64,000 bases of DNA from Eledone cirrhosa (lineage: Eukaryota). A program made the translations under genes and the position numbers. Under the pieces are notes generated by a model. That model had not been told where the DNA came from, ran no database searches, and saw only the letters and a list, made by a program, of their open reading frames with translations. The stretch covers positions 196,974,001-197,038,000 of the forward strand of contig OZ024740.1 of assembly GCA_964016885.1 (NCBI GenBank). Direction: 5' to 3'. This document shows positions 1 to 30,750 of the stretch, piece after piece (within the stretch, counting starts at the first letter, position 1; each line of letters begins with the position of its first letter).

Positions 1-300
1 ATATGTATATATATATGTATAGGTATATATATATGTATATGTATAGGTATATATATATGTATATGTATATGTATATATATATGTATATGTATATATATAT
101 GTATATGTATATGTATATATATATGTATATGTATATGTATATATATACATACAGGCACACATATATATATGCACGTATCAGTTTACCGAACATTTATTAT
201 AATGTTCGCTTTGTTCGTTTGTAAACAAACGAACAGCCTCATTTACGCTGTACAGTGTTCAGGCAACCACGTCACCTTTTTGTTCAACACTGACACAGGA

Positions 301-343
301 ACGATGTACTAGTTTCAAGCTTGTTAGCTATCGTAAGCACCGT
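301..343 (-). ncRNA. Hammerhead ribozyme family B, core-mutant copy (CUUACGA)
   Basis: Same fold as 745-787 but the CUGANGA box reads CUUACGA; probably inactive. Confidence 0.65.
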
Positions 344-744
344 ATACCTTTCCGCCAGATGGTTGAACGTTCGAAAGTATATACTTTCCTTATGAAAATT
401 AACGGCTGAGCAGCCTAATTTGCATATCGAGTGAGTTCAGTCGGCCAGGCGCACCGAAAACGATAAATGGTATAGAATGAAAGGAAATTTCATTTCTCAC
501 TCTTAGTACGGCACTTACTTAAATGTAAGTATGTATGTATACGTACATACATACATGTATACAGACGTACAGTAGCATGTATATATATATACATACAAGC
601 ACACATATATATATGCACGTATCAGTTTACCGAAAATTTATTATAATGTTCGCTTTGTTCGTTTGTAAACAAACGAACAGCCTCATTTACGCTGTACAGT
701 GTTCAGGCAAGCACGTCACCTTTTTGTTCAACACTGACACAGGA

Positions 745-787
745 ACGATGTACTAGTTTCAAGCTTGTTAGCTATCGTCAGCACCGT
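745..787 (-). ncRNA. Type I minimal hammerhead ribozyme, family B
   Basis: Minus strand: ACGGUG-CUGACGA-U-AGCU-AACA-AGCU-U-GAAA-CUAG-UA-CAUCGU; stem I pairs, palindromic stem III, GUA cleavage triplet. Confidence 0.85.
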
Positions 788-1115
788 ATACCTTTCTGCC
801 AGATGGTTGAACGTTCGAAAGTATATACTTTCCTTATGAAAATTAACGGCTGAGCAGCTAATTTGCATATCGAGTGTGTTCAGTCGGCCAGGCGCACCGA
901 AAGCATTTTGAAGACCGTAAGCTATTGTTTTTTAAAGTAGTGACAAATTCACTTACTTTGATCTCAGCAAACGGTCTTCAAAATGCTTTTAATTAAGCAT
1001 AAAGTGTATTGCAAAATACATTATATATACATCCATATATATATATGTATATATCTATATATGTATATGTATATATATATATGTATATATATATGTTTAT
1101 GTATATATATATATG

Positions 1116-1147
<32 letters not shown>

Positions 1148-1282
1148 TTGGAATAAATGCTCTGAAATAGCGATATATATGTGAATATAGACATAGAATA
1201 TTCGAAATATTCTGTATGTTTATAATAAACATTTTGAAGACCTAATCGCTATAGAATAGAATACGTCACGTATTACAATTAG

Positions 1283-1371
1283 ATTCTCGATAAAAGCAAG
1301 GGAAGTAATCTACGCGTTTCATTCTTGTTAGAAATCTTCAGGACTACATATCCAGTGCTTTTATCGAGAAT
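1283..1371 (-). ncRNA. Hammerhead ribozyme family A (inverted copy)
   Basis: Reverse complement of 1561-1649. Confidence 0.85.
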
Positions 1372-1560
1372 GACACAGCTAGAGACTTATAGAATATTAT
1401 AAACATACAGAATATTTTCGAATATTCTATGTCTATATTCACATATATATCGCTATTTCAGAGCATTTATTCCAATTTCTAATTTCTGCCGGACCGGCAA
1501 CCGCTCTTTCAAACCAGTTCCTGTACACAGCTAAGTATTCTATAAGTCTCTAGCTGTGTC

Positions 1561-1649
1561 ATTCTCGATAAAAGCACTGGATATGTAGTCCTGAAGATTT
1601 CTAACAAGAATGAAACGCGTAGATTACTTCCCTTGCTTTTATCGAGAAT
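1561..1649 (+). ncRNA. Type I hammerhead ribozyme family A, copy 1
   Basis: GUAGUC-CUGAAGA-U-UUCU-AACA-AGAA-U-GAAA-CGCG-UA-GAUUAC (1585-1627); stem I extended by a perfect 16-bp helix 1561-1576/1634-1649; predicted cleavage after 1621. Confidence 0.9.
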
Positions 1650-1870
1650 CTAATTGTAATACGTGACGTATTCTATTCTATAGCGATTAGGTCTTCAAAA
1701 TGTTTATTATAAACATACAGAATATTTTCGAATATTCTATGTCTATATTCACATATATATCGCTATTTCAGAGCATTTATTCCAATTTCTAATTTCTGCC
1801 GGACCGGCAACCGCTCTTTCAAACCAGTTCCTGTACACAGCTAAGTATTCTATAAGTCTCTAGCTGTGTC

Positions 1871-1959
1871 ATTCTCGATAAAAGCACTGGATATGTAGTC
1901 CTGAAGATTTCTAACAAGAATGAAACGCGTAGATTACTTCCCTTGCTTTTATCGAGAAT
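1871..1959 (+). ncRNA. Type I hammerhead ribozyme family A, copy 2
   Basis: Same as 1561-1649, offset 310. Confidence 0.9.
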
Positions 1960-2180
1960 CTAATTGTAATACGTGACGTATTCTATTCTATAGCGATTAG
2001 GTCTTCAAAATGTTTATTATAAACATACAGAATATTTTCGAATATTCTATGTCTATATTCACATATATATCGCTATTTCAGAGCATTTATTCCAATTTCT
2101 AATTTCTGCCGGACCGGCAACCGCTCTTTCAAACCAGTTCCTGTACACAGCTAAGTATTCTATAAGTCTCTAGCTGTGTC

Positions 2181-2269
2181 ATTCTCGATAAAAGCACTGG
2201 ATATGTAGTCCTGAAGATTTCTAACAAGAATGAAACGCGTAGATTACTTCCCTTGCTTTTATCGAGAAT
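2181..2269 (+). ncRNA. Type I hammerhead ribozyme family A, copy 3
   Basis: Same as 1561-1649, offset 620. Confidence 0.9.
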
Positions 2270-2490
2270 CTAATTGTAATACGTGACGTATTCTATTCTA
2301 TAGCGATTAGGTCTTCAAAATGTTTATTATAAACATACAGAATATTTTCGAATATTCTATGTCTATATTCACATATATATCGCTATTTCAGAGCATTTAT
2401 TCCAATTTCTAATTTCTGCCGGACCGGCAACCGCTCTTTCAAACCAGTTCCTGTACACAGCTAAGTATTCTATAAGTCTCTAGCTGTGTC

Positions 2491-2579
2491 ATTCTCGATA
2501 AAAGCACTGGATATGTAGTCCTGAAGATTTCTAACAAGAATGAAACGCGTAGATTACTTCCCTTGCTTTTATCGAGAAT
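2491..2579 (+). ncRNA. Type I hammerhead ribozyme family A, copy 4
   Basis: Same as 1561-1649, offset 930. Confidence 0.9.
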
Positions 2580-2682
2580 CTAATTGTAATACGTGACGTA
2601 TTCTATTCTATAGCGATTAGGTCTTCAAAATGTTTATTATAAACATACAGAATATTTTCGAATATTCTATGTCTATATTCAC

Positions 2683-2752
<70 letters not shown>

Positions 2753-2754
<2 letters not shown>

Positions 2755-2912
2755 CGAAGGAAATGTGGTAAGGAACATGGTGGACCATAACGCACCAAAG
2801 TACTCAATACATAGGGTAGTAGAGTGGGTAATAGGAACAAGTTTCGACGGCTAATTCTGTACAGAATTAGCCGTCGAAACGGCTGAGCTCAGCCGTCGGG
2901 GTCTTACTTGTT

Positions 2913-2917
<5 letters not shown>
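2753..2917. repeat. Palindromic short element (family E) between (TA)n tracts
   Basis: 40-bp perfect palindrome 2841-2880, 18-bp palindrome 2879-2896; homologous to 9041-9337. Confidence 0.65.
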
Positions 2918-2964
<47 letters not shown>

Positions 2965-3083
2965 CATTTATTGTACACGGAGAGGTTTGTAGCTTATAGC
3001 TAGTTATAGTGAATACAAAACTGGACAGAGCTAAACTGGCTATTTTACTATTATTTTGACAGCAGTTTACTATATTTTGGGAG

Positions 3084-3340
3084 GAAGGCGACGGATTGGC
3101 AGAGTCGTTAGAACGTTGGATAGAATTATTTGCGGACTCTGCGCTTTGAGGCCAACCTTACTTTCCATCGTTTCGAGGCCGATAAATAAATAGCAGTCCA
3201 GTTTGTCTTTCTCTCTCTCTCTCACAGAAGAAGGAAAAATCGGCTGTTCAGAACTGGAAAGGGATGGCCTCCGCCAGGTTTAAAATGTCCAAGAAACGCC
3301 ATATGTCATTACGGCACCTCTACGACTTCATCAAGGGTTA
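3084..3340 (+). mobile_element. tRNA-derived SINE with Meta-like central domain
   Basis: ggcagagtcgttaga head; ctttccatcgtttcgaggccgataaa domain; tail shared with 3775-4070. Confidence 0.6.
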
Positions 3341-3774
3341 TGTATCTCTTGCATGGCATTTCTTATGAGGTGGAAGTATTATCTCGGGCTAACAAGTGTA
3401 ATGTTGATTCATTTGGCAAAGTTCCGATTTTCTTGATTCTTGTTGGCCGGTCAAATATAAGACTTCTTCTGTGTTCAACATTGCTACTGTCTAGTTGCTT
3501 TTACCCAATATTTATTCACAGTCTATCCATAACATATGTGAGTGAGATAGAGTATTAGAAATACAGCTAAAATTCTTTGTCCAGTCCATCCTATTTGGAT
3601 AGTTTCAATAAGTGCACCAGATTTTTGGAATTTAATGTTGGCAGCGTACCTATATTCTACATTAACTCGTTCACCTAACTATAGAAATAAAAATATTAGA
3701 TATAACAATGTTGCTTGTGATAGTCTAGTTTCCTCTCTATGGGTGGGAATGGGCTAATTATTAGTTAACTTACT

Positions 3775-4070
3775 AGGTGCCGATAGGTTGCAGATTCGAT
3801 GACTGTTTTGCATTATTCGTTCTAGCTCTCTGCATTCAGGATTCAAAACCCGCCGAGGTCAATTTGGCTTTTCATCCTTTCGAGGTCGATAAAAAAAGTA
3901 CCAGTCTAGTACTGGGGTCGTCTCTTACTATCCTCCCCTTTCTCTCTCTGGAAAAAAAAACTGCTGGGTTCAGACCTGGAGCGGTTGATGGGCTCCGCCG
4001 GGTTTAAAATGCCCAAGACACGATGTATGTCACTCCGACGGCCCTACGAATGCACCAGGAGTTACAGCTT
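3775..4070 (+). mobile_element. tRNA-derived SINE with Meta-like central domain
   Basis: ttcaaaacccgccgaggtcaatttggcttttcatcctttcgaggtcgataaaa; same tail as 3084-3340. Confidence 0.6.
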
Positions 4071-5670
4071 CATACATGCATACGATTAGATACCAACCCT
4101 CTCTGCTTCTGGGGTTCGTGAAAAGGTCAACTAATAAGACATAGTCAGATATATACATACGGGCGGTCATTATACACTCACAGATATGTATATGTGTTTA
4201 TGTGTATGTATGGAAGTGATCTTCAGTTGTGTCAAGGACGCGACAAGCACCCTAGTGATGGTGACACAATAAAATGCATCCGGTACACTGTATAACGTGG
4301 CTAGTGTTAGGAAGGGCATCCAGTAGTAGAGTCCACGCCAAACAAAAAGCAGAGAGAACTCTTAGTTGTGTCAAGAACATGACAACCTCCCTAGTGTTGG
4401 TGCCACGATAAAATGCATCCAGTACACTGTAAAATGGTTGATTATAGGAATTGCATAACCGGGAACGCATGTAAGCGAGATGTATATATGTAAGACTAGG
4501 ACAGTAGCCCCGATTAAGTACTGACGTGATCTGTGACGATTCCTCCAGCTTTTTGGAGGATTTTTCCCTCTCGCATTACACACCAGTTCAACCTATAAGA
4601 AAACGGAGATTAAATGATATATATAACATCTCTTGGACTACTGCTATCTCGGAGATTTACCAAGATATCTTACTTCACCAACCTCTTACAGAATCACCTC
4701 TATACACTCCTTATATTTTCGTTCTTCTACACTGCGCGTACACACACACACGAACACCATACTGAGTGACACCTCCCATTCACATATATAAACTACACAG
4801 AATATACACACACACACACACGTAGACATATACACATACTGTGATACTCATATATAAACTGCACTCACACAATTCACAGAATATACACATACATACAGGG
4901 ACACACGCACGTAGACATACACACATTCTCACAAGATACTCACAACCCCGATAATCATCAATTCACTCATACCCGTACGTGCTACGACTGATACACACAA
5001 ACTGACGCGCACACACTTTAATGCACGCTCACATTCTTAACACAACCTATGCCATACATACGCATCTGGCGCACGCACATATACACACTCACAGTTAGAT
5101 CGATACATGCACATCATGAATAGATAGGCGCACTCATACGATGCACTTCAAACACAGACACACACACACCAGCAACCACTGACAGACCCAGACTCTCTGT
5201 CACCACCACTGCAATCACACTCCTACAGCCCTGTCAACTTCAATCCTTCTGATGACACTATCTGGCCTTTTTTTCTTAACATTTGCTCTCTCTCTCTCCC
5301 AACTTATCTCCTACTCTTGTTTCTTTCCTGGTGAATGACTAATGTCCGAAACGTTGAATTCACTTCTTTTTCCGTTCCATACAAAAGTGAACCAAACAAT
5401 ATATGCATATTGAATATAAGAAAAATCAATGCTAATTTGCAGAGTGCTATATGTTATTTATTAATAACTGGATATTCCGTTCCAAATTGCAAGTGCTAGG
5501 TTCGCTATTATGTGACTTTTAGGCATCGCGAGGCATGATTAATTCTTTTAATAACCTGCCACACACACAACCTCTGTTCTCAAATATCAACATATGCACA
5601 TAGAAAATAGATCTTCTTTCCCATTGTCCGGAGAGCAAAATTGTGGCAAAAATGAGTGTAAAGTGAAACG

Positions 5671-5752
<82 letters not shown>

Positions 5753-5902
5753 ATTTAAAACTGCACTATTCACAAGTGTTTTTTAACCTTCATATCATGT
5801 CTCCCGATTTTATCTGACGAAAACGGAAATGTCAACGCATGATGATATTTGTTTTTGAAATGCGCATAATAAAATACATGGAACTCTTTTAACCATCTTT
5901 TG

Positions 5903-5950
<48 letters not shown>

Positions 5951-6000
5951 CCAAAGAGGGCTCGATAAGGATAAATATATATCAAATATATATATATATT

Positions 6001-12304: not shown

Positions 12305-12356
<52 letters not shown>

Positions 12357-12404
12357 TATAGATAGGTAAATATACACGGGTGTGTATGATTGTGTATAGA
12401 AGAT

Positions 12405-12769
12405 TATATTAATAAGAGGAATTCCAACTTTGTCTGATTTACTCGTTTTATTTACAATCCTTTAAAATATATATAATGGTATTATAATGAACTAGTATGA
12501 TAGAATATTAAATTCTAAGTGTTAATTGAACAAGTACTTTCATGCTTTCGCAATCTTCAGGTTCATGATATGTGGTGACAGTCGAGTTTGCAATTTTCAA
12601 CTGTCACCACATATCATGAACCTGAAGATTGCGAAAGCATGAAAGTACTTGTTCAATTAACACTTAGAATTTAATATTCTATCATACTATTTCATTATAA
12701 TACCATTATATATATTTTAAAGGATTGTAAATAAAACGAGTAAATCAGACAAAGTTGGAATTCCTCTTA

Positions 12770-12777
<8 letters not shown>
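12405..12777. mobile_element. Inverted-repeat element family C with two divergent hammerheads
   Basis: Arms 12405-12582 and 12600-12777, near perfect, 17-bp spacer; HHR at 12527-12565(-) and 12617-12655(+). Confidence 0.85.
12617..12655 (+). ncRNA. Type I minimal hammerhead ribozyme, family C
   Basis: UGAAC-CUGAAGA-U-UGC-GAAA-GCA-U-GAAA-GUAC-UU-GUUCA; palindromic stem III; mirror copy at 12527-12565. Confidence 0.8.
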
Positions 12778-17532: not shown

Positions 17533-20072
17533 GTCTTGTTAACAACATAGTCTATAAATGTATTGGCCCAGGCCATGTCTAACTTAATAGCACCACCTGG
17601 CGAAGTCTTTCAATTCAGGATTTGGGCACCATGGCCCATTCGAGAAGAGAATTACTGTTTGCGGAGACATATCCGGGTGTGGGTGGTTTGTCCGGGATTA
17701 CTTGGAGGAATTTGTCCAAAGACTTCTTGAATTTTGTGTGGTCAGTTTCTGTTTTGACGTGTCCTGGTGTGATGTTGAAGAGAGCAGGGCCGATTGAGGT
17801 GAAATAATTGTGCCGTATTGTTGTTATGAGTTGCGATTTAGATTTTTGAATGGGACGGATAGCACGGGGCCCAAGCCTTGGGTGTATCTTGAAGGCGATG
17901 CCAACATCATTTGGGCAGTGATGATGGAACATTTTCCACATCATGCAGATAATATAACGCTCACGGCGACGTTGGAGTGAGTAAAGTTTCAGGTTTTCCA
18001 ATCGACCCCAGTAGTCAAGGTCTGACATGCCATCTATCTTTTTCGTGATTGCCCTTTGAGGAGCTTCAAGTTTCATGATACTTTGTTTCGTGTGGGGAGA
18101 CCACAGTGGACAACAGTATTCAAGGTGTGGTCGGGCGAAAGTAGAGAAGAGAAGGATAATGGTGCGGGAATCTCTCGACTGGAAGGTTCTGAGGATCCAG
18201 GAACACATTCTGCGGGCCATGTCAACTTTGCTGCTTATATGCGTGGTCCAGCTTATGTTGCTGTCCACGGTTACTCCCAAGTCTCTGATGTTGTTAGATG
18301 CCACGAGAGTTTCCCCGGAGGGAAGGGAGTACGGGAGTTTCAGAGCATCCTCTTTTCCAAAGTGGATCAGTTCGAATTTGTCTTCGTTCAGTAACATGTT
18401 GTTCTTTTCTGCCCATTGGGTAACAGCCAGTAGGTCTGACTGAAGGCTTATCCGGTCATCCACGCCATTGATGACCTTTTGGAGCTTGGAATCATCAGCG
18501 AAAATTTTAATGTTGCTGTGTTTGATGATGTCAGTGATGTCATTAATATAGATGATGAAGAGAAGTGGGCCCAACACAGTGCCTTGTGGGACTCCACTAC
18601 TGACTTTGGCTGGGCTTGATTTGACTCCCTCAACTACAACATGTTGGGTTCTGTTTGACAGGAAGCTCTTGATCCACTGCAGCAGCTTTCCAGTGACACC
18701 AATATTGGACAGCTTTCTCAGTAGAATGTTATGATCAACCCTGTCAAAGGCCTTGCTGAAATCAAGGTAGATAACATCAGTGTTGGAACCCTCTCCCAAG
18801 GCTCTCAAAATGTCATCAAAGTGATGCAGTAGTTGCGTCAGGCAATCCCTTCCATTACGGAATCCATGCTGGTTGGAGTTCAGCATATTGTTACTCTCAA
18901 GGAAGTGGGTCATTCGCGATCTCACCACTCGCTCAAATACCTTAATGATATGAGAGGTGAGTGAGATTGGACGGTAATTCACGGCAAGGGATTTGTTTCC
19001 CTTTTTGAAAACTGGGACAACAGACTGGGATAGAAGGTTTTCTGGCACATATCCAGCATCCAGTGAGTTCCGCCACAGATTGGCAAGAGGAGAAGCAAGT
19101 TGGTGTTGACACGCCTTCAAGACACAAGCAGGGAACCTATCGGGACCTACTGCTGAATTATGCTTGATTTCCTTTATTGCCGCCAAGACATCAGGGGCGC
19201 CAAACGTTATGTCCGATAAGGTGTAATGGGGAGTAACATCGCCGATACAGCCCAGATCGGCCATATCAGGATTGCTGAAAACAGAGCAGTATTGTTTCTG
19301 CAGTATCTCACCCATGGTTTTAGCATTGTCTTGAAGAGTGCCATTTTCATCAATTAGAGGGCCAACAGTAGAGCCAGTGATTTTGTGTTTTTTTGCAAAT
19401 GAAAAGAACACTTTGGGATTGAGTTTGATCTTCTCAATGGCCCAGGCCTCTTCAGCTCTTCTCTGATTGTTGATGAGGGACATTATGTTGTTTTGGAGGT
19501 TATGTTTTTTAATCTCTAGTGATGAAATGGCAGTCAAGTTGATGTGTTGCTGCTGACAGTATTTCAGCTTGTTGATTTTTTTGTTCGTTCTCTTAATTTT
19601 TCTGATGAGCGTTTTTCTATTTCTAGGGATTCTGCTCTTAGATTTGTTTATAGTTCTTAATGGGGTGTGTTTAGCACATATGTTTGTAACAGTGTCCACA
19701 AATGTCTGCCAGGACTTTTTGATGTTAGTGGGTGTATGAGTGTGCGTGAAGGACCAGTCGACATGTGCAAGATCATGACTGATCGCTTCCCAGTTTGCAT
19801 TGTGGAAATCCATAGCGTCAAACGGATGGACAGGAGAGATGACATTGGGTTTGTATATTGGACGGTGGAATCTCAGATCACAGAGAACCATGTCATGATC
19901 AGAGAGTAGAGTTTTCTCCACTGCAATATTGTGGATATTGTCAGTGTGATTGCTGAAAATTAAGTCTAGGACGTTTTTGTGGCACCTCGTTGGTTCGAGC
20001 ACTAGTTGGGATAGGAAGAAATCATCCATGAAGTCAAGAAGCGATTCCACAGCTTCCCTCCACAGCTTCCCT
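17533..20072 (-). mobile_element. 5'-truncated CR1/L2-group LINE
   Basis: Open ORF2 plus short 3' UTR; 5' end fused to (TA)n. Confidence 0.9.
17615..20072 (-). CDS. LINE ORF2 (C-terminal part of APE endonuclease plus reverse transcriptase), 5'-truncated, ~820 codons open
   Basis: PTR..NVLDLIF, LSDH; [50 protein letters not shown]; the upstream IY stretch of the 919-aa ORF is microsatellite. Confidence 0.9.
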
Positions 20073-26200: not shown

Positions 26201-29200
26201 TACTCTTTTACTCTTTTACTCTTTTACCTGTTTCAGCCATCCGGCTGAGGCCATGCTGGGGCACCGCCCTTGTTGCTACACATTTTATCTCCAGCCTGTA
26301 TAGGTTGGCCACTGGTGTAGGAGGGAGTTTGTTGCTGCTGCCCTTAGGTTTCCCTCGTGTCTTGCTGTGGGCTCATCCGGGATCCTGGATAACAAGGTGT
26401 CGAGATGTTTCTTAAAGACATCCACCTCCACGTCATGCAAGTCTCGCAGATGCCTCGGCAGCCTGTTGAAGAGTTGAGGGCCCTTGAATCCCAGGCTATT
26501 GCAATACCTGCTCCTTATTCTAGATGTGGAAGACGGGACCTTTGGCACCACACAGTGACGTCCTGTTCGACGGTTGGTCCAGCTCCCAATGCCAAAGTTT
26601 GGTGCTAGTCCCTCCAGGATTTTCCACATGTAGATCACTGCGTATCTCTCCCGTCTTCGCTCCAAGGAGTAGAGGTTCAGTTCCTTCAGCCTCTCCCAGT
26701 AGCTTGTCTCCCTCATCTTGGCAATCCTCTTGGTGTAGCTTCGCTGGATTGCCTCAAGCTCTGTAGTTAGTCTGACACTATGGGGTGACCACAGCTGGGA
26801 GCAGTAGTCCAGGCGGCTTAGGACAAAAGTCCTCCACAGTGTCAACATGGTGTCTCGATCTCTTGTAAGGAAAGTCCTCAAGATCCAGCCAGCGAATCGT
26901 CTACATGCTGTCGCCACCTTCATGATGTGTGAAGAAAAAGATGCATCATCGCTCATGTCTATGCCCAGGTCTCGTATCGATTTTGACACGGGGATATCGG
27001 TCCCTCCTGGTCCTGTGTAGCTGTGTTCCGCTATATTTGTGTTTGTGTTTGCAGGTTTGTATTGTAGGGCTTGGAATTTGCCAGCATTAAACTGCATGTT
27101 GTTTTCTTCCGCCCATCTGTATATGGCATCCAGATCCTGCTGTAAGAGGGCAGCGTCAGCCGGGTTTTTGATTGCCTGTGCTACCTTAGTGTCATCAGCA
27201 TAGCTAGTGAGGGATGTTGTTGCATGCACCACAGAGGGCATGTCCGAGAGAGCCACGAAAAACAGTAGTGGTCCCAGGACTGTCCCCTGAGGCACCCCAC
27301 TTGTTATCGGTGTTTCCCTCGAGAGGGCCCCATTTGCTGCGACTGCCTGGCTTCTGTCCCTTAGGAAGCCATGCAGCCACTCACCTACTTTTCCAGTTAT
27401 GCCGAGTCCGTGTAGTTTGTGACATATCATTCCGTGGTCGACCTTGTCAAAGGCCTTCGCAAAGTCAAGATATATCACGTCTACATGTGAGCTGTCTAGT
27501 AGTTGTCTCAGTACCCAGTCGTAGTGATGTAGCAGCTGTGTAAGGCAGCTTCTTCCTGGGCGGAAGCCATGTTGCGTGCTAGTCAGGCGGTCATTTTCTT
27601 CGAGGAAAGTGATTAGTTTCTTTCTGACGACTCGCTCCATGACCTTACTGATATGCGACGTCAGGGAGACTGGCCTATAGTTCTTGGCCTCCGCTCTACT
27701 ACCTCCTTTATGGATAGGGCATATTGTGCCTTCTTTCAGCTCCCTGGGTAGTACACCGCTAGCCAAGGAGCTTCTGAAGAGTATCTTCAGTGGAGTTGCT
27801 AAGGCCCGCTTACATATTTTTAGGAGAACTGCTGGGAATCCATCAGGTCCAGCAGCTTCTAATTTCATCAATGGCGTACACCACATCCTCCTCCGTTATG
27901 TCTATGTGGTTGATGGTTGCCATTTCTTGATGTAGTGTTGTGGCATCAAAGAACTCCTCTGGCTTCGTTATTTGCATGTGCCTCAGTGAACATGTGAAGA
28001 CACTTTTGTACTGTTCGTTCAGTATTTCACATATCTCTTGGGGATTTTCGGTTAATGAACCGTCCGTGTGGAAGAGTGGTCCAATCTTGCAGTGTACTGA
28101 GGCAGTTTCTTTTGCAAATTTAAAGAAGGCCTTAGGGTTTGTTTTAATGTTTTCTATGGCCCTGTTCTCTTTCCTTGCCCTCTCATTCTCATGTGAAAGC
28201 TTGAGTGCAATCTCGGTGTCAAGTAGTGCACGTTTCAAATAGGATTCCTTCTTGTTTTGGTTTTGTTGACTATTCAACTGGTTTGAGAGTTTAGTTCTAC
28301 GTCTCATAAGGATTTTCCTATCTCTGGGAATAAGATTTTTGTGTCTGTTTGCCTCTTTCTCCGGGACACACTTTTTGCATATGGTGTGTATCGTTGTCAT
28401 GAAGTGTTGAAATTGTGTGTTAGTGTCTTGTGTGGCGATGTTTGCACTCCATGTTTGCTTCCGGATTTCACTCTTAATCTTCTTCCAGTCAGCCCCGTAG
28501 AAGTTAAGGCTGGATAGCATCCCGGAGCTTCTTGGTGGTTTTGTCTCTGTTGGTTCTCTTGGACCACATATCATTAGCTCTACCAAGTTATGATCCGAGA
28601 GAATTGTTGGTGTCACCTTTACATTGTGGATGAGCACTTCGTTGTTTGTAAAACAGAGGTCCAGGACATTTTCGCCTCTTGTTGGGAGGAGTATTGCTTG
28701 CTCCATGAACAGCCTGTGTGTGAGGGCCAGCAGGGATTCCGTCTGTCTCTGTTCTATTGACGTCATTCCAGGGAGGAGGTGGCCCTCAGGCCATTTGACC
28801 TTTGGTAGGTTGAAGGCTCCCAGCAGTAGGATGTTGAGACCCTGGTCCAGTTTGTCAAGGACCTCTTCTATCCTACTTAGGCTATCCTCAAATTTACCCT
28901 CATGACTGGGGGCATCGGGCGGCCGATATGTGACACATATTACCGTCTGTAGTTGCTTCATATGTATTATCAGTGTGTCACAGACTGAGTTTGAATGTGT
29001 CAACAGTACAATTGGTGTGACATCTTCACGGATATACAGAGCAACCCCACCATGAGTTCTCTCCTTCCTGTCCGAACGAAATACAGTATATTTCGGTATA
29101 TGTATTTCTGCATCTGCTATACTGCTTGTCAGGTGCGTTTCGGTTAGTGCCATGCATAGTGCTTGATTGCTTATGGCTAAGTCTCCCAGGTAGGAAATTT

Positions 29201-29430
29201 TACTCATGTTGCTGAGTTTCACCAGGCCCCTGACATTCAGCAGCAGTACTGGTGTGACTTTTGGGGTGCCAGTAATGGCTGTCGGTATGACACCTGGTCT
29301 GGTGTCAGCGGTGGCCACTCTGGGTCCCTTAACTGCGGTGGTCTCGAGTGTTGGTGTGGATGACCCTGGCTCTGGAGACGATGCAGCCAGGTCAGCTGTC
29401 CCACAATCTTCTCTGCCATCACTAAAAAAT
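26201..29430 (-). mobile_element. CR1/L2-group LINE with nearly complete ORF2, frameshifted
   Basis: EN plus RT ORFs; 3' tail of 8-bp (TAAAAGAG) repeats at 26201-26227; both ends in (TA)n. Confidence 0.9.
26285..29318 (-). pseudogene. LINE ORF2 endonuclease-reverse transcriptase, frameshift near 27857
   Basis: EN motifs LLNVRGL, LTETHL, HGGVALYI, YRPP, GAFN (for GDFN), LSDH; RT motifs NYRPVSLTS, YLDFAKAFD, GVPQG, YADD. Confidence 0.9.
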
Positions 29431-29482
<52 letters not shown>

Positions 29483-30022: not shown

Positions 30023-30155
30023 GTTTTAATATAGATGAGATTCTACAGGACTAGAACTGTTTCATTCATTTGAAATCATCAGGAATCAGGATTCCTGATG
30101 ATTTCAAATGAATGAAACAGTTCTAGTCCTGTAGAATCTCATCTATATTAAAACT
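30022..30155. mobile_element. Inverted-repeat element family D with two divergent hammerheads
   Basis: ~65-bp perfect arms around 30088; HHR at 30039-30087(-) and 30090-30138(+). Confidence 0.85.
30090..30138 (+). ncRNA. Type I hammerhead ribozyme family D
   Basis: GAUUC-CUGAUGA-U-UUCA-AA-UGAA-U-GAAA-CAG-UUCUAGUC-CUG-UA-GAAUC. Confidence 0.8.
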
Positions 30156-30750
30156 GTTATACTCTGCTATGTATTGAGTACCTTACTTACTGTGGTTACC
30201 TCCGATTCAACCCGGAATAACGTATATATATATATATATATATATACAGATATATATATATATGTAAGTATATATGTATGTGTGTGTGTAAGTGTTTTTG
30301 TATGTGGTTGTGCGTATGTAAATATATTTTATTCTTTCCATCCTACTAAAACACTCTGGCCACCTGTGGCTTGTATGTTAACTTGACCACTCACCCCAGT
30401 CTGTGCCATGCTTCGGTCTTGTTAAATGTTTAATTTCTATTACCAACCCACCTAAAAAATTTCCCTACTATATATCTGTTGAATTACTATTCTTGGGGTT
30501 TTTATTTATTTATTTTTTGTTTAATTTTTGTTTAATTCTTTATTTATTTTATTTATTTATTCATTTATTTATTTATTTACTTATTTATTTATTTAAAAAA
30601 AGCACTCTGGCTAATTGACCACTCCCCATAGAAAAAACGGCCTGTGCCATGTAGTGGTCCTGTGTATCTAAATACCCCCCCCCCCTCCCCATCACCACCC
30701 TCCCTTGCCACTACCTAAATGTATAAATACCAGAACTTAATATGACACCC

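Follow-up and report, generated by a model that had tools for sequence, protein, structure and literature searches.

Animal non-LTR retrozymes and endonuclease-bearing PLEs are the described systems closest to the repeat analysed here. For animal retrozymes, the accessible text of one study reports circles and dimer-enhanced cleavage, proposes that tandem cDNA is made from circles and names PLEs as candidate mobilisers (Cervera 2020, PMC7229834). A later study, in its accessible part, reports cleavage for one of nine dimer constructs (frog) and phylogenetic support for PLE dependence, and states that the mechanism is still to be worked out (Li 2026, bioRxiv 10.64898/2026.07.22.740005). PLE insertions are described, in the portions of the sources available, as tandem and inverted copies with short duplications and a bias for microsatellites, the typical form being an inverted copy with a tail of 30-40 bp at one end (Craig 2021, PMC8557442; Arkhipova 2013, PMC3846280). 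In vitro, a purified PLE protein cleaves AT-rich DNA on both strands and extends each of them, initiating in the RNA at two internal sites between which the tail lies; the main substrate is RNA that has stayed uncut, and hammerhead mutants insert normally (Frangieh 2024, PMC11167929).

The locus studied here lies near the start of the window, by which we mean the whole stretch of 64,000 nucleotides of Eledone cirrhosa DNA that was analysed. The original prediction described four identical 310-bp units preceded by an inverted copy of about 250 bp with a fifth hammerhead, lying in (TA)n and devoid of any meaningful reading frame, and this description is borne out. The direct arm (1395..2690, + strand) shows perfect period-310 identity (100%) over 4.18 units, and the inverted arm (1147..1396, - strand; 250 bp or 0.81 unit) is identical to the unit except for a 1-nt deletion. 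No frame of 120 aa or longer occurs within 1148-2690. (TA)n stands on both sides of the insertion (1022-1148 and 2683-2753, with the left and right target tracts annotated at 1022..1146 and 2691..2753), and inside this microsatellite the target duplication of the window locus cannot be delimited.

Units are numbered from the first base after the predicted cut, so that unit position 1 is window position 1622. The two arms meet head to head with a 2-nt overlap (1395..1396), the direct arm starting at unit 84, inside a palindrome at 79-95, and running to a short end at unit 130-139 that merges into (TA)n; the outer end of the inverted arm is a long ('tail') end at unit position 165. The inverted arm carries 26-35 nt past the point where the direct arm stops, a feature that was absent from the original prediction. 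This tail covers unit positions 140-165 (1147..1172, - strand), or as much as 35 nt when 130 is used as the short end, and is present at one insertion end only. Both end points are contained in a terminal module (unit 59-165; 1680..1786, + strand) that has 75-78% identity to the ends of older sister families and that we infer to be a candidate region for recognition and start by the reverse transcriptase. Just 3' of the tail lies a small hairpin (1797..1809, + strand) with 96% of cells paired in the 310-bp family and its sisters, and with no two-sided change across them. As for the surroundings, an older sister family has left a short remnant with two arms, including the terminal module, directly left of the insertion at 903-1040, and a nested palindromic element with a related copy in L100 occupies 2820-2915 between TA tracts.

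Every unit contains a hammerhead that fits the type I motif, scanned as CUGAAGA / stem II / GAAA / CGCG / UA with a 6-bp stem I. Core and stems I-III are complete in all five copies of the array (four direct, one inverted), and the scan agrees with the cut positions put forward before. In the inverted arm the hammerhead lies at 1305..1347 (- strand, predicted cut after 1311), and in the direct arm at 1585..1627, 1895..1937, 2205..2247 and 2515..2557 (+ strand, predicted cuts after 1621, 1931, 2241 and 2551, respectively). Across the window the motif scan returned 14 matches, against 0 in 60 local shuffles. An exact 16-bp helix, formed by 1561-1576 with 1634-1649 and already proposed as an extension of stem I, closes that stem and gives unit 1 an extended hammerhead domain (1561..1649, + strand) that recurs each 310 bp. 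A U-U mismatch, overlooked before, opens stem II at its base; according to the accessible text of the retrozyme study, cleavage by the axolotl HHR_Amex2 hammerhead, which has the same U-U, is weak in the monomer and improves in the dimer (Cervera 2020, PMC7229834). Stem III is a palindromic CGCG, and the dimeric folding that it was said to permit is found in the predicted minimum-energy fold of two neighbouring motifs, a double hammerhead joined by a 6-bp ACGCGU helix III; palindromic or near-palindromic stems III are also present in units of the sister families. The 310-bp unit folds with a z of -5.4.

The Rfam check suggested with the original prediction gave no hammerhead call: the 52 rows obtained over 1-6000 held zero hammerhead rows at the gathering score and only microRNA noise from the TA repeat, and the best match over 1540-1670, Hammerhead_HH9, reached 16.5 bits (E 0.083) against a threshold of 52. 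Covariation was scored on ten units, seven of them from sister families. The outer helix is 94% paired with two-sided changes in 7 of 14 pairs, stem I is 93% paired (4 of 6 pairs) and stem II 78% paired (3 of 4 pairs). Cells with two-sided change number 72, against 29 in shuffles, and overall pairing is 81%, against 31-46% in slid controls. In the register of the window unit, pairing is poor for the terminal-module helices (55% for the outer one). Since the rows are related sequences and the structure was taken from the window unit, this evidence is treated as supportive and is given no probability; it supports the view that the hammerhead and its closing helix would have been kept by compensatory changes across the older sister families.

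Other elements of the window deserve mention in their own right. A second hammerhead family (150-900, - strand; 24633, - strand; 31409, + strand) has a unit of about 444 bp and a palindromic CUAG stem III, and its tandem copies in L100 are about 480-510 bp apart. A third family (30025-30212 and 30757) combines a long stem III with a stem II resembling that of the 310-bp family, and its copy at 30025-30212 is a two-armed element between (TA)n tracts. At 5814-5868 (+ strand) there is a hammerhead-like motif with a long stem II and a palindromic UGCGCA, found also in L095 and L106. Long frames of LINE-type endonuclease and RT-like character, flanked by TA arrays, occupy 17615-20070 and 26285-29432 (both - strand).

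The family is large. A search for genome copies had been recommended, and exact pattern matching finds at least 13,525 hammerhead copies in the 3.0-Gb genome, about 4.2 Mb or 0.14% of it as a lower bound; 806 of them match the CUGAAGA hammerhead of the window copy, which belongs to a minor subfamily, and 12,719 the CUGAUGA forms that make up the majority, with 0 matches for a reversed-pattern control. Older sister families with units of 312-321 bp share the same layout, and one 30-nt motif of theirs has 2,570 exact matches. Comparison of 70 arms from 39 loci (38 top matches and the window) revealed 91 differences from the window unit in 81,066 bases, a divergence that is biased low by the choice of loci as top matches. 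The original prediction had read the identity of the units as the sign of a very recent insertion. Youth stands at the level of the family, given this low divergence, but the identity within an array mainly reflects copying at insertion and not age alone.

The 310-bp unit is also present in six sequencing runs of undefined kind that carry four organism labels, none of them listed as an RNA run. Three of the four runs examined contain one 340-nt contig that closes on itself, which is not used as evidence for a circle because a collapsed tandem gives the same contig. The run variants 1595T, 1598A and 1606G were considered as an RNA quasispecies and rejected, as they correspond to the genomic subfamilies that form the majority (12,719 copies). 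A further candidate class, fixed variants that seemed private to a locus, was given up too: two of eight were tested, and both are subfamily markers (819 and 793 copies). Under other organism labels, runs X2, X3 and X6 each hold one low-depth contig of the majority-type unit, which could stem from related hosts or from traces of host DNA.

The anatomy of the insertion was followed across 59 mapped loci, 39 of them being the top matches plus the window and 20 coming from the exact hammerhead matches (14 from the first of the CUGAUGA matches and 6 from the CUGAAGA matches). Two arms stand head to head in 48 of the 59 (33 of 39 in the first set, 15 of 20 in the second); both outer ends are resolved in 46 of these 48, and 13 of the 59 are single-armed or lack resolved ends. 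At 45 of the 46 resolved two-armed loci (30 of 31 and 15 of 15) one arm ends at unit 127-139 and the other at 163-172, a pattern whose chance under independent choice of ends is of the order of 1e-14. The tail may be on either arm and no resolved locus has two ends of the same kind; the lone exception, L053, combines a tail end with an end at unit 74. A pile of tail-arm stops at unit 138-139 (4/45) was also considered and falls short of significance (p 0.2-0.36). At 37 of 45 loci the flanking sequence is TA-like on both sides, and target duplications of 12-16 nt were found at the five informative loci among 45 (L043, L051, L067, L158 and L167), with the duplication at L043 overlapping the last bases of the element at both ends.

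Junctions between arms are mostly short overlaps or short fillers. Among 45 loci there are 44 distinct junctions, the sole repeat falling in the 16-bp helix, and 13 of 90 arm starts, including that of the window junction, cluster at unit 79-90 within the palindrome (p 0.006). In this sample of 90 arms, drawn from loci picked for holding a full unit or hammerhead, 81 arms exceed one unit and 59 exceed two. Arms may reach 19 units (L050), and both are multi-unit in 36 of 45 loci. None of the 90 starts within 5 nt of the predicted cut. An inverted head, as in the window, is the rule; it belongs to the usual shape of a PLE-type insertion, in which the tail is confined to one end.

Because the insertions combine two arms, one short and one tail end, TA targets and duplications of 12-16 bp, we consider it very probable that the 310-bp family is mobilised by a PLE. 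The genome has many PLE-type GIY-YIG loci. One young family encodes an RT with a C-terminal GIY-YIG, with more than 100 copies identical over a 140-aa segment and many copies retaining open 775-aa frames. The hammerhead of its 4,204-bp unit has the U-U of the 310-bp family and a palindromic loop of 4 nt, and the 775-aa RT-GIY-YIG frame follows an initial frame of about 470 codons; a full unit lies at L186:3050-7254 (G000:C26 near 20.70 Mb), where each arm has two units. Insertions of this PLE into (TA)n are likewise two-armed and multi-unit, with a short and a long end, and the window contains one. This window copy, a two-armed pLTR stump at about 12331-12777 that is 99.3% identical to L093, has hammerheads at 12560 (- strand) and 12622 (+ strand) and a short and a long end in (TA)n. 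The long end of the young PLE lies about 177-190 nt after its cut, its tail of about 50-63 nt being longer than that of the 310-bp family; an earlier equation of this end with unit 165 was dropped.

The young 4,204-bp PLE is an internal control for the two-armed architecture and not a demonstrated partner. Comparison of the 310-bp unit with it gave no match (score 38, with shuffles at a mean of 32 and a maximum of 52). A search of 40 GIY-YIG loci, out of 150 scored from 10,595 candidates, yielded no autonomous partner sequence, the matches being sister-family insertions nested there and, in one weak case, another hammerhead family; a search in 30 sister-family loci found no partner either. Apart from these comparisons, the PLE that adjoins L165 lies across an assembly gap, and L090, L107 and L108 hold, 3' of their ORFs and near their 3' ends, other PLE families with degenerate hammerhead-like cores in which a palindromic CCGG stem III was read by eye.

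Turning to the template, if the hammerhead had cut the RNA to a linear monomer, arms would stop at the cut and be no longer than about 165 nt, so the observed arms did not come from such a monomer, and the integrated copies begin and end away from the predicted cut site. Since the arms are multi-unit, carry a single haplotype and in none of 90 cases stop at the cut, the RNA template was either circular or a multimer left uncut. At 14 of the 15 two-armed loci of the second set, whatever distinguishes the locus from the window unit as a fixed variant is fixed in the one arm as in the other; the fifteenth has the window haplotype, and about 12 haplotypes occur among the 20 loci. Uniformity of haplotype by itself proves no monomer template, because the two variants tested are subfamily markers. 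Given PLE mobilisation, a circle is the likely template. Its competitor is two-site PLE insertion from an uncut linear multimeric transcript of long donor arrays, for which the hammerhead would be dispensable or act later. The in vitro behaviour of uncut RNA and of hammerhead mutants speaks for it (Frangieh 2024, PMC11167929), as do the eight of nine dimers without cleavage in the accessible text of Li 2026, the 19-unit arms of L050 as possible donors, the two-unit arms made by the autonomous 4.2-kb PLE and one variant whose unit index is identical in the two arms of L170. It nevertheless appears unlikely: no arm at the 59 mapped loci continues into donor flank, where a toy model of linear read-through of typical arrays expects 29-46%, and junctions are unshared apart from one helix-guided pair. 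Copying from a linear donor, moreover, cannot lengthen arms but only shorten them, whereas 59 of the 90 are longer than two units, and the compensatory changes that keep the hammerhead and closing helix across families also count against a linear multimer.

Growth of the arrays after insertion would account for the repeats in another way, as a minisatellite that arose from a truncated PLE end and expanded locally by unequal crossing over, a route discussed in the accessible text of Li 2026 (bioRxiv 10.64898/2026.07.22.740005), where frog retrozymes are also linked to pLTRs. At 6 of the 59 loci (L031, L046, L047, L048, L050 and L171) some variants recur periodically in a subset of the units of one arm, which points to some duplication at the DNA level. 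As a general origin, such expansion is improbable, in view of the 36 of 45 loci that are multi-unit in both arms with one haplotype common to both, the dispersal of the arrays with fixed ends and the lack of a pLTR match in the PLE loci compared; within-array variants, moreover, are mostly singletons (in the first set of 39 loci). Far more remote still is an assembly artefact as the source of the tandem or the inversion. No contig from the run data spanned the window junction and some arrays abut gaps (L049, L165), but dozens of loci repeat the architecture, with unique junctions and with haplotypes that extend over the whole locus, and in one independent run the same two ends are seen to pass into TA (loose ends at 1450 and 1481).

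Our preferred reading, to which we assign a probability of roughly 70%, is that a young, high-copy, non-coding hammerhead repeat was copied into (TA)n by the RT and endonuclease of a PLE, probably from circular monomer RNA. The cycle could run as follows. The 310-bp arrays would be transcribed, and neighbouring hammerheads would fold as a double hammerhead and cut, releasing 310-nt monomers that would be ligated into circles. The PLE protein, perhaps as a dimer, would nick both strands of an AT-rich target, and reverse transcription would begin at two internal RNA sites separated by about 35 nt (unit ~130 and ~165), one for each strand, with short matches between RNA and target aiding the start. 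Each copy would then circle the template for a variable number of turns, and joining of the two cDNAs by microhomology would leave two arms from the same template. A more specific proposal, which we offer tentatively and hold at somewhat less than even odds, is that the insertions preserve in the genome the traces of twin-primed rolling-circle reverse transcription, in which one PLE complex copies one 310-nt circle twice, from start sites 35 nt apart on opposite target strands and for up to about 19 turns, the circle being recognised by its structure rather than by pLTR sequence. If true, this would tie the proposed circle cycle of retrozymes to the two-site mechanism seen with PLEs in vitro, and would explain the tandem and inverted structures of PLEs generally.

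Compared with plant LTR retrozymes, which have a type III hammerhead in two LTRs and a 4-bp duplication, the 310-bp family differs in each respect, having a type I motif, tandem units and duplications longer than 4 bp. Its architecture is that of animal non-LTR retrozymes, as originally predicted. The unit is non-coding, within the range of 150-450 bp and low in GC, it is dispersed and multi-copy, a complete type I hammerhead with a predicted weak palindromic helix III is present in each unit, and the duplications of 12-16 nt at the five informative loci exceed 4 bp. The accessible texts on that class describe the same combination of a low-GC, non-coding tandem unit of 150-450 bp, one type I hammerhead, a palindromic stem III, a double-hammerhead fold, duplications longer than 4 bp and coexistence with PLEs (Cervera and de la Pena 2020, PMC7229834; Li, Clavereau and Pollet 2026), and the U-U at the base of stem II is shared with axolotl HHR_Amex2 (PMC7229834). 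The family departs from described animal retrozymes in that its sequence is new and, unlike 24 of 57 frog retrozyme families that match known elements in the available part of Li 2026, it has no pLTR homology in the loci compared. A two-armed head-to-head insertion with a one-sided tail is not described for retrozymes in the accessible text of Cervera 2020 (PMC7229834) or Li 2026, and a literature search, with most subscription journals, Repbase, Dfam and supplements outside its scope, returned no prior account of the 310-bp family or of this signature in retrozymes.

With endonuclease-bearing PLEs, as far as the accessible texts describe them (PMC3846280, PMC8557442, PMC11167929), the family shares tandem copies with an inverted, 5'-truncated head-to-head arm, a tail (30-40 bp in PLEs) at one end only, ends internal to the unit and downstream of the hammerhead, AT-rich or microsatellite targets and short duplications, as would suit a PLE dependant. 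It differs from them in that the whole unit measures 310 bp, has no RT or GIY-YIG frame and forms arms of up to 19 units. Chlamys MRC1 is likewise a non-autonomous PLE dependant with multicopy head-to-tail insertions, according to the accessible text of Craig 2021 (PMC8557442). In the same source, Chlamys non-autonomous elements generally resemble an autonomous family at the 3' end, whereas the 310-bp family gave no partner match, and the Chlamys clade is reported to lack canonical hammerheads, whereas the 310-bp family has one. Since the predicted RT start sites (unit ~130 and ~165) are exact and an intact young PLE lies nearby, a direct in vitro test can be designed, so that the mobilising enzyme of animal retrozymes and the circle as template become testable. 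Judged from its sequence, the 310-bp repeat is a new family of a described class, the animal non-LTR retrozymes, and being young, abundant (at least 0.14% of the genome) and stereotyped it is useful for testing PLE mobilisation and rolling-circle copying in that class.
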